64,000 nucleotides of DNA, taken from NCBI GenBank assembly GCA_965228735.1, contig OZ245838.1:1403011-1467010 (forward strand). Reading direction: 5' to 3'. This document shows positions 45,556-50,990 of the stretch, piece after piece (position 1 is the stretch's first letter; every line of letters starts with the position of its first letter). The DNA comes from Planctomycetota bacterium. GTDB taxonomy: Bacteria > Planctomycetota > UBA1135 > UBA2386. The notes beneath the pieces are model-generated. The model was not told where the DNA came from. It searched no databases and saw only the letters and a list, made by a program, of their open reading frames with translations. The position numbers were made by a program, and so were the translations under genes.

Positions 45556-45878
45556 GCCGCCGATGTAGCGGATCCACGGGCCCCTGCCCAGCGCGACGAA
45601 GCTCCGGCGCGACCGGGTTTTCCCGCGCGATGAGGACCGTTTCGACACGGGATGCGGGCCACGGCCGGCCGCTTTCGTCCCCCGCCGAGACCGGCACGCA
45701 TCCCGCCGTTCTGGCAAGCCAGGACGCCGCACGGCGACCCTGCTGCCGCTTCGCGGTCGATTCCCGACCCCTGTTTGGGTTCAGCGTCGCCCGCCATCGG
45801 CCGATCAGTAGGGATGAACCCACGCCCTGACACTTGCGTGACGTGAACACCGGGCGAACGTTCCACCACGACACACCA

Positions 45879-46550
45879 ATGTACCTACGACACGCCGCTA
45901 CCATTCTGTTCACCATCGCGCTCGGCGCGTGCGCTTCGGGGTCGCGCCTCGAAGAGGCTCCGAACCGCAAAGAGAACCTCACGACCTGGATCGAGAAGGT
46001 CCACATCGAGGCCGGCCGCTCGCGCGACTCGATCGCCGAGAGCTACGAACGCCTGCAGATGCTCGCCTCCGGCGAGTACCCGCAGGGCGACGCCGCGATG
46101 GCCTACGCCCAGTTCGTGCAGTCGATCGACATCGCCGAGACCCAGGCCACGCGCTTCCGCGAGGTCGTCGAACCGCTCGCGTCCGCGGCCGCCCCGGTCT
46201 TCGAGCAGTGGGCGCAGGACGTCCAGACGATCGGCAACGAACGCCTGCGCACGCGCGGCGAGCTCAGCATGACCGTCAGCAAGGAACGCTACGAAGCGGT
46301 CCTCGCGTCGGCGAACGATGCCCGCGAGCAGTTCAACGGCTTCGTGCAGGACCTCCGCGACCACGCGGCGTTCCTCGCGCACGACCTCAACCCGCGCGCG
46401 CTCGACGAGATCCAGGAAGACGTGAAGATGGTGCGCAACAACGCGGAGAAGCTCGACCAGGAGCTCGACCGCACGCTCACCGCGGCGCGCGCCTACGTCG
46501 ATCTCAACGCGCTGCCGGCGCAGGGTTCGCCCGCGTCGCCGAATCGCTGA
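45879..46550 (+). CDS. Helical lipoprotein, DUF2959-like
   Basis: Lipobox IALGA|C; LRDHAAFLAHDLNPRAL resembles the DUF2959 consensus (recalled, not searched). Confidence 0.6.
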   Translation: MYLRHAATILFTIALGACASGSRLEEAPNRKENLTTWIEKVHIEAGRSRDSIAESYERLQMLASGEYPQGDAAMAYAQFVQSIDIAETQATRFREVVEPLASAAAPVFEQWAQDVQTIGNERLRTRGELSMTVSKERYEAVLASANDAREQFNGFVQDLRDHAAFLAHDLNPRALDEIQEDVKMVRNNAEKLDQELDRTLTAARAYVDLNALPAQGSPASPNR

Positions 46551-46692: not shown

Positions 46693-48921
46693 GTGACCTG
46701 GACGCTGCTGAGCTGCCTGGCCGTCGTGCTGCTCCTGGGCCTCGCGGTCGCGTTCCAGCGCCGCGCCGACCTGCGGCGGCAACGCAGCGTCGTGGCCGAA
46801 CGCGCCGCGATGGCGCGGCGCAAGAACGACACCGCACCGCTCGTCGTGCCGGTCATCGACCTGCAGCGGTGTCTCGGGTGCGGCACGTGCGTGCGCTCGT
46901 GCCCCGAGGAGGGCGTGCTCGACCTCGTGCATGGCCAGGCGGCCGTGGTCAACGCCGCGCAATGCGTCGGTCATGCGCGCTGTGTCGCGGAATGTCCCGT
47001 CGGCGCGGTCACGCTCGGCACCGGCGACCTCGCGGAACGCGACGACGTGCCCGTCCTCGGCCCGGATCTCGCGGCCGTCGGCACGCCGGGGCTGTATCTG
47101 GTCGGTGAAATCACCGCGAAGGCGCTGATTCGACCGGCCACCGAGCAGGGCGCGCGCGTAGCGCGCACGATCGGGCAGGCGCGGGGCGAGACCATGCCGG
47201 GCGTGCACGATCTCGTCGTCATCGGCGCCGGCCCGGGCGGTCTGGCATGCGCGCTGGGGGCGATCGAACAGGACCTCGACCTCCTCGTGCTCGATCAAGA
47301 ACCGGTCATCGGCGGCACCGTCGCGAAGTATCCGCGCCGCAAGCTCGTGCTCACCGAGCCGATCGACCTGCCGCTGCACGGCCGCGTGCGGCAGAAGGAG
47401 TTCGAGAAAGAGCAGCTCATCGACCTTTGGCAGGATCTCGCGGCCGAGCACCAGGTGCCGTTCCGCGGCGGCGTGACGTTCGAACGCTGCGAACGGCTGG
47501 CCGACGGCACGTTCCGGATTCACACCGACGCCCCGGACCTCGCGGAGCTGCGCGCGCAGAACGTCGTGCTCGCGGTCGGACGTCGCGGCCAGCCGCGCCG
47601 CCTCGGCATCCCGGGCGAGGAGCTGCCGCACGTCGCGTACAGCCTGCTCGACGCGGGTGCGTTCGAGGACTGCGAGATCGTCGTCATCGGCGGCGGTGAC
47701 AGCGCGGTCGAGGCCGCGATGGCGCTCGCCGATCAGGCCGGCAACCGCGTCACGATCGTCTACCGCCAGGACCAGTTCTTCCGCATCCGCCGCAAGAACA
47801 AGGACCGCCTCGAGCAGCGACTCGAGCCCGGTCGTCTCGAGGTCGTGTTCCGGCACGAGCCGACGGAGATCGACGTCGACTTCGTCACGATCCGGAGCAA
47901 CGACGGCTCGGGGGTCGAACGGGAGATCCCGGCCGATCAGGTGTTCGTCCTCGTCGGCGGCGAACCGCCGTTCCCCGCGCTGCAGCAGAGCGGCGTGTCG
48001 TTCGATCATTCGACGCCGGCAGCGGCTGCGGCCGCGAACACGCAGCCGTCCGAAACCGCGGCCGAGCGGTCGCTCTTGCCCGTCCTCGGCGGCTCCGTCG
48101 TGCTCACGCTCGCGACGTTCGCGTTCGCGCTCTGGCACTTCGACTACTACTCCAAGGTCGCAGCCCTCCGGGCCGCCGATCCGAAGCATGCGTTGCTGCG
48201 GCCCGATCAGAGCCTCGGTCTCTGGTTCGGGATCGTGGCGGTGATCGCGCTGCTCGCCAACCTCGCCTACCTGCTGCGCCGTCGTCTCACGGTCACGTTC
48301 GGGTCGCTCACGGGCTGGATGGACGCGCACATCGTCACGGGCGTCGGCGCGCTGCTGCTCGCGGCGTTGCACGCCGCGATGGCGCCGCGGTCGACGCCGG
48401 GCGGGCATGCGTTCTGGGCCCTCGCGGCGCTCGTCGTCACGGGCGCGATTGGCCGCTGGTTCTACGCCTGGCTGCCGCGCGCGGCGAACGGCCGTGAGCT
48501 CGACCTCGAAGCGATCCGTGGCGACCTGCGCTCGCAACGGGGCGGCACGACGGGGTTCGCCGCCGCAGCGCAGCAGGAGACCGAGAAGCTGCTCGAGCGT
48601 CGCCAGTGGCGTTCGACGTTCGCGGGCCGCGCGCTGACGCTGATCGGCCTGTCGTGGGATCTCAACCGCACGCTCAACCGGCTGCGGCAACGAGCCCGGG
48701 CCGAGGGCATCGCCCCCACTGATCGCAATGCGACGTTCGCGACGATCCGCGCGGCCTACAAGACGTCGGTCGCCGCGGGCCATCTCGAGGACCTGCGCGC
48801 CGTGCTCGCGACCTGGCGCTGGCTGCACCGCTGGCTCGCGCTGCTGCTCATGCTGCTCATCGGCGTCCACGTGGTCATGGCGTGGCTGCACGGCGCGTTC
48901 TCGTTCGGAGGCTCCGCGTGA
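46693..48921 (+). CDS. Membrane oxidoreductase fusion: TM anchor, 2x[4Fe-4S] ferredoxin, FAD/NAD(P)H TrxR-like domain, di-heme-b-like TM domain
   Basis: CLGCGTCVRSCP and CVGHARCVAECP; VIGAGPGG; VIGGGDSAVEAA..YR; two TM helices each with a His pair 14 residues apart (DAH...LHA; WLH...VHV). Confidence 0.85.
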   Translation: MTWTLLSCLAVVLLLGLAVAFQRRADLRRQRSVVAERAAMARRKNDTAPLVVPVIDLQRCLGCGTCVRSCPEEGVLDLVHGQAAVVNAAQCVGHARCVAECPVGAVTLGTGDLAERDDVPVLGPDLAAVGTPGLYLVGEITAKALIRPATEQGARVARTIGQARGETMPGVHDLVVIGAGPGGLACALGAIEQDLDLLVLDQEPVIGGTVAKYPRRKLVLTEPIDLPLHGRVRQKEFEKEQLIDLWQDLAAEHQVPFRGGVTFERCERLADGTFRIHTDAPDLAELRAQNVVLAVGRRGQPRRLGIPGEELPHVAYSLLDAGAFEDCEIVVIGGGDSAVEAAMALADQAGNRVTIVYRQDQFFRIRRKNKDRLEQRLEPGRLEVVFRHEPTEIDVDFVTIRSNDGSGVEREIPADQVFVLVGGEPPFPALQQSGVSFDHSTPAAAAAANTQPSETAAERSLLPVLGGSVVLTLATFAFALWHFDYYSKVAALRAADPKHALLRPDQSLGLWFGIVAVIALLANLAYLLRRRLTVTFGSLTGWMDAHIVTGVGALLLAALHAAMAPRSTPGGHAFWALAALVVTGAIGRWFYAWLPRAANGRELDLEAIRGDLRSQRGGTTGFAAAAQQETEKLLERRQWRSTFAGRALTLIGLSWDLNRTLNRLRQRARAEGIAPTDRNATFATIRAAYKTSVAAGHLEDLRAVLATWRWLHRWLALLLMLLIGVHVVMAWLHGAFSFGGSA

Positions 48922-50990
48922 ACAAGAGCAAGGCGGGGCTCGGGGTGGGGATCGCGTCGCTCGTCGGCGTGCTGCTGCTCGCGTTCGTGAATCTCGACCG
49001 CGAGCCGCCGGGCCCGGTCGCGGCCGTGCACGCCGCACTGCCCGAACTCGAGGGCGGCAGCAACTGCGCGGCCTGCCACGGCGGCTGGTTCGGCGACATG
49101 CAGAAGGCGTGCATGGAGTGCCACGCGGACATCGCGGACCAGCTGGCGCGCGGCAGCGGCCTGCACGGCCGGCTCGACGCGGGCGCGGCGGCGAGTTGCT
49201 CGACCTGCCACGGCGACCACCACGGCCAGGAGTTCCGGCTCGTGAACGCTCTCGCGTTCGCCCAGGCCGGCGTGCCGGACGAGCAGCAGTTCGACCACAG
49301 GATGGTCGGCTTCGCGATGCACGGGCGGCACACCGAGCTCGACTGCACCGAGTGCCACGAGCACGCCGAGACCGCGGTCCTGGCGGCAGGCCAGAAGCGC
49401 TACCTCGGTCTCACGCAGAACTGTGCGACGTGCCACGAGGATCCGCACGGCGGTCAGATGCAGATGAACTGCACGACGTGCCACGGCCAGGATTCGTTCG
49501 ACGAGCACATCGTCCGCAACCACGACGCCCACCTCGAGCTCAGCGGCCCCCACGGCAACGCGACGTGCCGCGACTGTCATGCGACCGGCACGCGGCACGC
49601 CCTCGAACACATCCCGCAGGGTGGCATCGCGCGTGGGCGTGCGTGCGGCGACTGTCACGAGTCCCCGCACGATCCGACGTTCGTTTTGGCCAACGGCGCC
49701 GCGATGGAACTGTCGCCGAACCAGAGCTGCGAGGTCTGCCACTCGCTGGCGATTCCGCACTTCGACGACCCGGTCGTGACGGTGACCCCGGCGCAGCACG
49801 CCCACTCGGGCTTCTCGCTCGGGGAGCCCCATGCGGCCGTCCGCTGTGAGCAGTGCCACCCGGCCGGCCAGGACCGCGACGCCAGCGGCGACGATTGGGC
49901 GATCCGCCACCCGGGGCGCGATGCGAAGGACTGCCGCGCGTGTCACGAAGATCCGCACGGCGGCCAGTTCGACAACGCGCCGTTCGCCGCCGAGGGCTGC
50001 ATCAGCTGCCACGCGGAGACTCACTTCGGCCCGCACGAGTTCGATCTCGCGGCCCACGCCCGGACGACCTTCCCGCTCACGGGCAAGCACTCCGAGCTCG
50101 GCTGCGAGTCGTGCCACCCCGATCCGAAGGGCGACGAGCCCCGCCAGTTCGACGGCACACCCAACCGGTGCGAACAATGCCACGACGACGCCCACCACGG
50201 CGCGTTCGCGGCGCACCAGGACCGCTTCGCCGCCAATCCACGGGGCTCGTGCGCCGAGTGTCACGGCACCGAGCTGTTCCGCAACGTCGACCTCGCCGTG
50301 TTCCACCATGGCGAGCACGCCGGCTTCCAGCTCGACGGCGCCCACGATCAGATCCACTGCACCGACTGCCACGAACGCACCGCCACGCCCGACGCGCTCG
50401 GCCGCACGTTCGGCCGGATTCTCGACGGCGACCGCGAGTGGAACGGCTGCCGCACCTGCCACCAGGATCCGCACGACGGCAAGTTCGACTCCGCGACGCT
50501 GCCGCAGGAGATCGACGGCCGCCGCGGCTGCGTGCGATGCCACTCCACGGTCTCGTTCCGCCTGCTGCCGCACGGTTTCGAGCACGGCGCGTTCACGGGC
50601 TTCGAGCTCGCCGGCGCCCACGCCAAGATCGACTGCGCCGCGTGCCACCTGCCGCGCGACGAAGAGACGCCAGCCGGCCGCACGACGATGCCCGCCAACG
50701 GCACCAACTGCGGCGACTGCCACGAAGACTCGCACCAGAATCAATTCGAGCGCCTCGGGCGCACGGATTGCGCCCGGTGCCACAAGAGCCAGATCTCGTT
50801 CCGCCGGATCTCGTTCCGACACAACCTCGACTCGCGGTTCGCGCTCGGGGACGCGCACCAGAAGGTCGCGTGCAAGGAGTGTCACAAGGTGGAAGACATC
50901 CACGGCGTTCAGGCCGTTCGCTACAAGCCACTGCCGACGAAGTGCGTCGAGTGCCACGGCACGGACAACCCGCGAAGGAGACGACGATGA
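48918..50990 (+). CDS. Membrane-anchored multiheme cytochrome c, 23 CxxCH motifs (690 aa)
   Basis: 23 CxxCH counted by hand; N-terminal hydrophobic helix; GTG start overlaps the upstream TGA. Confidence 0.93.
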   Translation: MNKSKAGLGVGIASLVGVLLLAFVNLDREPPGPVAAVHAALPELEGGSNCAACHGGWFGDMQKACMECHADIADQLARGSGLHGRLDAGAAASCSTCHGDHHGQEFRLVNALAFAQAGVPDEQQFDHRMVGFAMHGRHTELDCTECHEHAETAVLAAGQKRYLGLTQNCATCHEDPHGGQMQMNCTTCHGQDSFDEHIVRNHDAHLELSGPHGNATCRDCHATGTRHALEHIPQGGIARGRACGDCHESPHDPTFVLANGAAMELSPNQSCEVCHSLAIPHFDDPVVTVTPAQHAHSGFSLGEPHAAVRCEQCHPAGQDRDASGDDWAIRHPGRDAKDCRACHEDPHGGQFDNAPFAAEGCISCHAETHFGPHEFDLAAHARTTFPLTGKHSELGCESCHPDPKGDEPRQFDGTPNRCEQCHDDAHHGAFAAHQDRFAANPRGSCAECHGTELFRNVDLAVFHHGEHAGFQLDGAHDQIHCTDCHERTATPDALGRTFGRILDGDREWNGCRTCHQDPHDGKFDSATLPQEIDGRRGCVRCHSTVSFRLLPHGFEHGAFTGFELAGAHAKIDCAACHLPRDEETPAGRTTMPANGTNCGDCHEDSHQNQFERLGRTDCARCHKSQISFRRISFRHNLDSRFALGDAHQKVACKECHKVEDIHGVQAVRYKPLPTKCVECHGTDNPRRRRR

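Follow-up and report, generated by a model that had tools for sequence, protein, structure and literature searches.

The window analysed here, a 64,000-nt stretch of a Planctomycetota genome with a G+C content of ~70%, encodes on its forward strand (46693-48921) a protein of 742 residues in which a membrane anchor, a ferredoxin, a flavoprotein with permuted segment order and a five-helix membrane domain follow one another; residues are numbered on this open reading frame (ORF) throughout. The gene, which starts at GTG with an AGGAGG sequence 6 nt upstream, is present as a single copy in the 7.19-Mb one-contig genome and lies in a conserved operon with three multihaem cytochromes c (Table 1). 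An initial annotation had read the protein as a transmembrane electron wire in one chain, and this single-chain architecture (anchor, His-substituted ferredoxin, permuted flavoprotein of the YpdA/thioredoxin reductase (TrxR) type, four-His membrane domain) was supported by all computational tests run. The AlphaFold2 model of the 742 residues has a mean predicted local distance difference test (pLDDT) score of 88.1 and a predicted template modelling score of 0.77. No specific curated family in Pfam or NCBIfam claims the protein; YpdA and thioredoxin reductase are nearest, both under cut-off.

More than 700 homologues of ~740 residues share the full architecture, most of them from Planctomycetota metagenome-assembled genomes with generic names only. 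Across 116 homologues with 48–72% identity, the seven cluster cysteines, E139, the glycines of both dinucleotide motifs, R358, H546, H560, H697, H712, and H726 are invariant, so the features of the ORF cannot be put down to chance.

The flavoprotein part was examined against curated families and solved structures. In Pfam it gave a Pyr_redox_3 match at 1.7e-33 and a Pyr_redox match over residues 329–396, the disulphide-oxidoreductase fold spanning residues 173–458. Both GxGxxG-type motifs of the fold shared by TrxR, YpdA, and TrxR-type ferredoxin-NADP+ reductases (FNR) are present, and G178, G180, and G183 of GAGPGG, as well as GGGDSA, are invariant among the 116 homologues. The third hallmark, a GD element C-terminal to the NAD(P)H domain, is missing from that place: the domain ends at DQVFVLVGGEP (residue 415) without the canonical C-terminal element, and the Pfam, NCBIfam, and PDB matches all end at ~250–280 of 300–316 positions, i.e. 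35–50 residues before the canonical C-terminus. The YpdA profile (TIGR04018) was matched over positions 1–280 of 316 at 139.6 bits, below its curated cut-off of 339.9, and the thioredoxin reductase profile (TIGR01292) at 68.7 bits, below a cut-off of 343.45. The best PDB sequence matches were 7a7b and 7a76 (5e-19), with the alignment to 7A7B ending just before the last FAD-binding strand. Because the chain after residue ~440 is modelled as a low-confidence linker and then a transmembrane helix, the missing element does not lie at the C-terminal side. The initial annotation had placed it ahead of GAGPGG, quoting the segment GTPGLYLVGEITAKALIRPATEQG, which occupies residues 130–153. This region is confident in the AlphaFold2 model (pLDDT 83–97), with a strand at 134–136 followed by a helix at 146–162.

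For a direct test of permutation, residues 113–170 were moved behind residue 440 and the profiles were rescanned, the same construct with the segment reversed serving as control. The YpdA match grew from profile positions 1–263 to 1–291 and from 137.7 to 146.5 bits (+8.8); those to TrxR (1–249 to 1–278), lipoamide dehydrogenase (121–285 to 121–333, +8 bits), glutathione reductase (125–268 to 125–311), and an AhpF homologue (4–246 to 4–297) were likewise extended. No profile match was extended with the reversed segment. When stand-alone modules from other lineages (see below) were de-permuted, the YpdA score rose by 12.7 bits in Pontiella, 16.8 in Prolixibacteraceae, 15.7 in Undibacterium, and 12.3 in Gemmatimonadota, the YpdA profile being covered from 1 to 315 of 316 in one case and TrxR coverage reaching 297 of 300. 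A profile built from the segment only matched the GD element of GltD (401–448 of 456), trimethylamine dehydrogenase (665–697 of 729), glutathione reductase (~315–353), lipoamide dehydrogenase, and a TrxR-like chain (266–299 of 304), with individual E-values that are weak (0.06–1). In split modules the consensus of the segment, FETNVPGxFIAGELGGMGLIRNAVEQG, reads as the classical T-x4-G-h-h-A-x-G-D with Glu for Asp, and a GE-type motif stands between ferredoxin and GxGxxG in 218 of 238 relatives. Foldseek ranked YpdA/Bdr and TrxR-type FNRs highest (E ~1e-18, TM 0.62–0.65 on the target), aligning ~270 of ~325 target residues, as expected from a sequential aligner on a permuted fold. From these results we conclude that the chain is truly permuted and that the whole module family shares this order. 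The literature searched contained no account of a circular permutation within the thioredoxin-reductase fold family, and permutation of such a flavoprotein is apparently undescribed.

The earlier view that the protein is FNR/YpdA-like, with no redox CxxC, agrees with the Foldseek ranking and with a motif scan, in which no CxxC was found in the flavoprotein domain. Its cysteines are C186, C266, and C327; only C186 is locally conserved, being Ser or Ala in other phyla, and no cysteine is conserved outside close relatives. A cysteine in the first glycine-rich loop defines YpdA, as seen in Bdr structures, and this residue too is absent (GAGPGG). On the side of the pyridine nucleotide, Y357-R358 and R364 are conserved after the second Rossmann strand, and no acidic residue occupies the position that usually selects NADH; the pattern resembles the HRRxxxR 2′-phosphate site of Escherichia coli TrxR. 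The GGGDSA..YR pattern, taken in the initial annotation as a sign of NADPH, is thus present and conserved, and on these residues a preference for NADPH is probable rather than settled.

The ferredoxin domain carries a first cluster motif, C60xxC63xxC66xxxC70P, and a second, C91xxH94xxC97xxxC101P, which departs from the eight-cysteine pattern of 2×[4Fe-4S] ferredoxins (two complete CxxCxxCxxxCP motifs), the fold still being recognised. The C-x2-H-x2-C-x3-C form remarked on at the outset proved to be the family norm: among 238 members, ligand position 2 of the second motif is His in 194, Val in 19, Ile in 15, another residue in 9, and Cys in 1, and His was found in 16 of 16 modules spanning the phyla. 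In the first motif the equivalent position is Cys in 183 members, Ser in 50, and another residue in 5. From 42 close relatives (His 32, Ile 6, Val 4), H94 had at one stage been regarded as poorly conserved and hence no ligand; this view, and with it a firm [3Fe-4S] call, was withdrawn because of the wider sampling. Substitutions at residues 63 and 94 are correlated across the family: the first-motif cysteine is replaced (55 cases, Ser or other) only where the second motif has His, and Val, Ile, Tyr, Ala, or Asp occurs in the second motif only alongside an intact first motif. This suggests that at most one of the two positions may lose a potential ligand.

By the ligand scheme of dicluster ferredoxins, C60, C63, C66, and C101 bind one cluster, and C70, C91, and C97, with position 94, the other. 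The Val and Ile variants of position 94 copy the [3Fe-4S] motif of FrdB/SdhB, and by this analogy those members, at least, should hold a three-iron cluster. Of the 2[4Fe-4S] content originally proposed, the dicluster-type ferredoxin stands; two [4Fe-4S] clusters are not established, the canonical fourth cysteine of the second cluster being missing in 237 of 238 members and Val or Ile taking its place in 34. Near-total replacement of a cysteine by His, or by Val or Ile, in one cluster amounts to a natural experiment in Fe-S ligand choice.

In the membrane domain, helices at residues 461–481, 507–531, 539–560, 569–594, and 706–732 were seen both in the full-length model and in a model of the domain built separately. 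The third and fifth carry the two His motifs, and T583-G584-A-I-G587 lies on the fourth. H546, H560, H712, and H726 are invariant in the 116 homologues, as are W542, W708, and both glycines of TGxxG, the threonine being kept in at least 90%. The two helices with His pairs 14 residues apart that had been noted before are therefore H546/H560 and H712/H726, that is, H-x13-H, the spacing of mitochondrial cytochrome b. In cytochrome b and ferric-reductase domains, His pairs so placed on two helices hold two b-type haems one above the other in the membrane. Lys and Arg residues are distributed such that the N-terminal soluble part, the 528–541 loop, and the 595–707 helical insert fall on the cytoplasmic side, which would place H546 and H712 at the inner level of the membrane and H560 and H726 at the outer level. 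The N-terminal anchor fits the same orientation, with nine Lys and Arg in the Arg/Lys-rich cytoplasmic stretch behind it (residues 23–52) vs none ahead of the helix; an anchor is also present in stand-alone modules of other phyla. We infer from the motifs that two b-type haems are bound by the four histidines. Weak Pfam matches among 27 members were to DUF4405 (27 of 27), Ferric_reduct (26 of 27), and Ni_hydr_CYTB (14 of 27); the Ferric reductase family (PF01794) scored 10.4 bits here vs a threshold of 28, which falls short of membership in this six-helix family, with a best E-value among relatives of 8.9e-7.

Between the fourth and fifth helices lies a cytoplasmic helical insert of ~110 residues. 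Its invariant motifs are PRAANGRE after the fourth helix, W639, R646, and H697-x-E699-D700-x-R702 before the last helix, and the insert is found also in stand-alone PCC3-type membrane proteins. It may serve the Fe-S flavoprotein for docking or provide an additional cofactor site.

A scan of one genome per species was used to survey the two halves of the protein where they are encoded apart. Outside the Planctomycetota they are separate neighbours, a module of ~440 residues (anchor, ferredoxin, permuted flavoprotein) and a membrane protein of ~290–345 residues with two W-x3-H-x13-H motifs, adjoining cytochromes with 20–24 and 34–42 haems. The module precedes the membrane protein in Pontiella (Kiritimatiellota); the order is reversed in Bacteroidia, Ignavibacteria, Neomarinimicrobiota, and Acidobacteriota; and the two genes diverge in Undibacterium, Rubrivivax, Hyphomicrobium, and Gemmatimonadota. 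Where betaproteobacterial loci (metagenomic and Oxalobacteraceae) follow the gene order published for PCC3, the module is found upstream in divergent orientation. The stand-alone membrane proteins, which have SGVIG where the fusion has TGAIG, are homologous to the C-terminal domain (hhalign, 97.6% at E 2.9e-12 and 99.2% at E 6.5e-20), and have near relatives in Sulfuricella, Sulfurimicrobium, and Sulfurirhabdus. Most of what a profile search with the membrane domain recovered was fragments of the fused protein, and the PCC3 proteins were beyond its reach. On this comparison of sequences, the Planctomycetota protein is a gene fusion of a PCC3-type membrane protein with its ferredoxin-flavoprotein partner. 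In-frame TGA codons in some matches to short modules were considered as selenocysteine and rejected, being ordinary stop codons of the ~440-residue genes.

The module also occurs in other company. In two betaproteobacterial loci (L087/L088, 8848-9813, minus strand), a gene of ~300–320 residues with a weak GGDEF match lies between the module and the PCC3 membrane protein gene, which hints at cyclic-di-GMP-linked regulation. In further fusions (P0162, P0154, P0243, P0216, P0170, P0188, P0195) the module is joined to C- or N-terminal multihaem cytochrome c domains, FHA domains, or long TPR regions; in the fusions to a periplasmic cytochrome, which have no obvious haem-b domain, it is a puzzle by what path electrons would traverse the membrane.

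An exhaustive search of 1.84 billion representatives returned 596 clusters at E ≤ 1e-30. Matches occurred in 43 of the 301 genomes and 37 of the 230 genera in an even sample of Planctomycetota, and some two dozen of these 43 genomes have the full-length fusion. Among genomes such as G147, G227, and G069, some have two full-length copies with 44–58% identity to the query, and others a fused copy together with a stand-alone module of ~440 residues.

The six genes of Table 1 from DUF2959 to the 11-haem cytochrome form a conserved, tightly packed operon. The GTG start of the 23-haem cytochrome gene overlaps the stop of the fusion gene (GTGA), and the ATG of the barrel gene overlaps the stop of the 23-haem gene (ATGA). 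The six-gene set recurs in Planctomycetota loci with unrelated flanks: in all loci examined the 23-haem cytochrome is directly downstream of the fusion gene, a gene for ~560 residues without Pfam match takes the barrel position in L001, L005, and L006, and a ~220-residue cytochrome gene and a multihaem cytochrome of ~900 residues are kept at the 7-haem and 11-haem positions. The DUF2959 gene stands directly upstream of the fusion gene in every one of these loci (L001-L006), the other flanking genes differing; its ORF can be called from a TTG at 45834, with a Met at 45879. The 578-residue putative barrel had no significant family in a Pfam scan. The 11-haem cytochrome is the probable outer-surface component; its start may alternatively be an internal Met that a signal-like stretch follows. 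The c-type haems encoded by the operon number 41 (23 + 7 + 11).

Table 1. Positions within the 64,000-nt window of the genes and protein features described in the text
Feature	Position	Strand	Residues	Remarks
DUF2959 protein, lipobox-like LGAC	45879..46550	+		First gene of the conserved cluster; Pfam PF11172, 69 bits
Fusion protein (membrane anchor, ferredoxin, permuted flavoprotein, dihaem-type membrane domain)	46693..48921	+	1-742	
N-terminal transmembrane anchor	46696..46758	+	2-22	Hydropathy scan
Dicluster ferredoxin	46849..47013	+	53-107	Pfam Fer4_10 (3.5e-10) and related families
First-motif ligand position 2	46879..46881	+	63	Correlated with residue 94
Second-motif ligand position 2	46972..46974	+	94	Correlated with residue 63
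Displaced FAD-binding "GD-motif" strand and helix	47038..47187	+	~116-165	G138-E139 in place of G-D; precedes GxGxxG
FAD and NAD(P)H domains, YpdA/TrxR-type fold	47203..48012	+		GAGPGG at residue 178; GGGDSA at residue 333; Y357-R358...R364
Five-helix membrane domain	48070..48918	+	460-742	W542-x3-H546-x13-H560; T583-G-x2-G587; W708-x3-H712-x13-H726
Cytoplasmic helical insert	48475..48807	+	595-705	
23-haem cytochrome c, N-terminal membrane anchor	48918..50990	+		23 CxxCH; Pfam Cytochrome_C7, c3, MtrC/MtrF-like families
Putative outer-membrane barrel, 578 residues	50987..52723	+		Signal peptide; C-terminal ...YLQRTF
Cytochrome c, 220 residues	52734..53396	+		7 CxxCH
Cytochrome c, 967 residues	53439..56342	+		11 CxxCH; MtrC/MtrF-like domains
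Ser/Thr protein kinase with TPR repeats, 1032 residues	56356..59454	-		Immediately downstream of the operon, convergent

The closest described counterpart of the membrane domain is the "conserved inner membrane protein" of the PCC3 and PCC4 systems, reported as ~300 residues with five helices, two W-x3-H-x13-H motifs, and SGxxG (He et al. 2017, PMC5566968). Both share five helices, the W-x3-H-x13-H motif on the third and fifth, (S/T)GxxG on the fourth, and a length of ~290 residues. The assignment to PCC3 was made from this published motif definition and from homology to the stand-alone proteins in PCC3-ordered betaproteobacterial clusters (Undibacterium and others), where the order is membrane protein, multihaem cytochrome of ~600 residues, giant multihaem cytochrome, and putative porin of ~750 residues. 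The remaining operon parts correspond as well, with a 23-haem cytochrome of periplasmic type (21–27 haems in published systems), an 11-haem cytochrome (10–35 published), and a putative barrel. What differs is that the membrane protein is here fused to a ferredoxin-flavoprotein, that a 7-haem cytochrome and a DUF2959 gene are added, and that the fusion points to cytoplasmic NAD(P)H, whereas the published model leads to quinones and Fe(II) oxidation. PCC3 systems are bioinformatic predictions so far; the published descriptions consulted make no mention of a ferredoxin-flavoprotein partner, and literature searches on DUF4405 with multihaem cytochromes, and on entry to such conduits from NAD(P)H, yielded no relevant report. 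The porin-cytochrome system of freshwater Verrucomicrobia is a different, 8-haem system (PMC5615132).

The individual parts may be compared with better known enzymes. With YpdA/Bdr and the TrxR-type ferredoxin-NADP+ reductases (7A76, 7A7B, 7APR, 2ZBW, 3LZW, 6GAS) the soluble part shares the fold of two dinucleotide-binding domains, GxGxxG, GGGDSA, a GD-type element, and, in the case of FNR and YpdA, the lack of CxxC; it differs in its permuted segment order, the replacement of the GD aspartate by glutamate, the missing glycine-loop cysteine, and an N-terminal anchor and ferredoxin that tie it to a membrane cytochrome. The NOX/FRE proteins follow the same logic, from cytoplasmic NADPH through FAD and two stacked b haems on His-pair helices to an external acceptor. 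Their dehydrogenase, however, is of the ferredoxin-NADP-reductase type without Fe-S clusters, as opposed to a TrxR fold with clusters, and the protein described here has five helices, the ~110-residue cytoplasmic insert, and a multihaem cytochrome as probable acceptor. Dihaem succinate:quinone oxidoreductases and fumarate reductases likewise pass electrons from flavin through an Fe-S relay to a dihaem cytochrome b, and have the same type of membrane-proximal motif, C-x2-(non-Cys)-x2-C-x3-C-P, but all parts are unrelated in sequence, the substrate here would be a pyridine nucleotide, there are two clusters vs three, and no quinone site is evident. The outer half of the operon recalls MtrCAB and the Geobacter Omb/Oma/Omc conduits in its periplasm-spanning multihaem cytochrome, barrel, and surface cytochromes with MtrC/MtrF-like and c7-like domains; those conduits are fed from the quinol pool via CymA, ImcH, or CbcL, whereas this one would have its own NAD(P)H-flavin-Fe-S input.

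Taken together, the operon is read as a route for quinone-independent electron export, from NAD(P)H through a fused inner-membrane wire into a multihaem conduit, and we put the probability of this reading at about 0.62. It is built on the observed domain order, permutation, conservation, gene fusion, operon conservation, and fitting charge distribution, from which we infer the cofactor content, the preference for NADPH, the outward flow, and the independence from quinones. Residues 1–440 would be held at the cytoplasmic face by the N-terminal helix, where NAD(P)H, probably NADPH, would reduce FAD. Electrons would then pass to the Fe-S cluster of C60/C63/C66/C101 and on to that of C70/C91/C97, with or without H94, before reaching a cytoplasmic-side haem b (H546 and H712) and a periplasmic-side haem b (H560 and H726). 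From there the acceptor would be the membrane-anchored 23-haem cytochrome c, which would deliver to the outer-membrane barrel with the 7- and 11-haem cytochromes and so to an external acceptor. We favour outward flow since electrons would then move downhill in redox potential and along the membrane potential, and since no energy-coupling element is visible. Such a path would conserve no energy, and would act as an electron sink to regenerate NAD(P)+ or serve the reductive dissolution of metal oxides.

A number of observations weigh against this reading. All Pfam matches of the membrane domain lie below curated cut-offs, and the separate domain model (pLDDT 86) had no significant match among solved structures (Foldseek against PDB, best E 0.45), the non-significant matches being long-helix proteins such as BAR domains and ABC exporters; for these reasons the argument for haem runs through motifs and topology. 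For the His forms of the ferredoxin, the sequence is equally compatible with a second cluster of [4Fe-4S] type that has His as a ligand and with one of [3Fe-4S] type to which the His merely lies close. Near-identical DNA is present in metagenomes from corals and macroalgae, and in such oxic surroundings it is not obvious why an external electron sink would be needed. No RNA run in the search of such runs contains the fusion-gene sequence. For PCC3 itself, a quinone link and Fe(II) oxidation or electron uptake were proposed (PMC5566968), and in Sideroxydans CL21 one PCC3 copy has an inner-membrane component that increased along with iron-oxidising activity (10.1101/2025.02.27.639646), which does not fit electron export.

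A quinone link is unlikely in our estimation, but it has published standing. Here the membrane domain would be a quinone-reactive cytochrome b, as He et al. suggested (PMC5566968), with the flavoprotein as a feeder resembling type II NADH dehydrogenase or as a side branch. Dihaem cytochrome b proteins commonly have quinone sites, and the domain shows weak similarity to the Ni_hydr_CYTB and Cytochrome_B families. The covalent fusion, however, together with adjacency through three gene arrangements in many phyla, speaks for a direct physical partnership of flavoprotein and membrane protein, and a two-cluster relay that ends at the membrane suits direct transfer to haem; no quinone-site motif was identified, none being specifically testable.

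It is also improbable that the same wire runs in reverse, an extracellular donor such as Fe(II) feeding the cytochromes and membrane domain so that the flavin reduces NAD(P)+ for biosynthesis. The NAD(P)+/NAD(P)H couple has a potential of about -320 mV, far below the potentials of Fe(II)/Fe(III) at neutral pH. Flow in this direction would be uphill by several hundred millivolts and against the inside-negative membrane potential, and no proton-coupling, quinone-cycle, or bifurcation element was visible in the protein in Pfam and NCBIfam scans. The behaviour of PCC3 in iron oxidisers points both ways: it has been proposed as a conduit for iron oxidation or electron uptake and is common in Gallionellaceae iron oxidisers (PMC5566968, PMC9900912), and the response of Sideroxydans CL21 described above would suit inward flow, yet on Fe(II) Sideroxydans ES-1 turns down both of its PCC3 clusters (PMC8788666), which fits a role other than iron oxidation. 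The carriers found are, moreover, mostly of heterotroph-type lineages, not known iron oxidisers.

Two further alternatives are very improbable. In one, the membrane domain binds no haem and is an anchor or sensor only, leaving a tethered YpdA-like enzyme that uses NAD(P)H to reduce a soluble substrate in the cytoplasm; by sequence and by fold the soluble part is indeed matched best by YpdA/Bdr enzymes and the membrane domain has no relative among solved structures, but the four histidines keep dihaem-typical spacing and helices across phyla without exception, the YpdA active-site cysteine is absent with no family-wide cysteine in the flavoprotein, and the coupling to multihaem cytochrome genes is tight. 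In the other, the N-terminal segment is a degenerate remnant of an extra Rossmann β-α-β unit and the fold is truncated, as might be read from the best-scoring single stretch of the segment profile in GltD, which falls on the NADPH-binding GGGDTA region and not on the GD motif (with weak E-values), but all other matches of that profile fall on the GD element, de-permutation extends at least seven independent family profiles in five proteins where the reversed control does not, the consensus FETNVPGxFIAGE fits T-x4-G-h-h-A-x-G-D, and a TrxR-type FAD domain without a GD element could not complete its FAD site.

A broader form of the export reading is offered tentatively. In it, PCC3-type conduits, in at least ten phyla, would be hard-wired quinone-independent NAD(P)H:extracellular-acceptor oxidoreductases, a bacterial counterpart to NOX/FRE, and not quinone-linked systems of iron oxidation. 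The permuted flavoprotein would be their obligatory entry, docked on a dihaem cytochrome b of a new type or, in Planctomycetota, fused to it. Permutation would make this build possible, setting the ferredoxin beside the flavin at the new N-terminus and freeing the C-terminus at the membrane face. The His, Val, or Ile residue would mark a high-potential, membrane-proximal cluster, of [3Fe-4S] type or His-ligated, tuned to haem b.

To our knowledge, the known bacterial pathways of extracellular electron transfer (Mtr, Geobacter Pcc, FLEET) take their electrons from the quinone pool. The fusion is evidence that PCC3-type conduits have an entry fed by NAD(P)H and independent of quinones and, as one polypeptide with every predicted cofactor from NAD(P)H to the periplasmic face, provides a single-gene handle on it. 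If the proposal is true, a direct connection of NAD(P)H to multihaem cytochromes by way of flavin, Fe-S clusters, and two b haems would constitute a different entry principle, and the module would be a widespread redox-balancing electron sink in which no energy is conserved. The reading of PCC3 genes in environmental genomes, where they are now used as candidate markers of iron oxidation, would then change.

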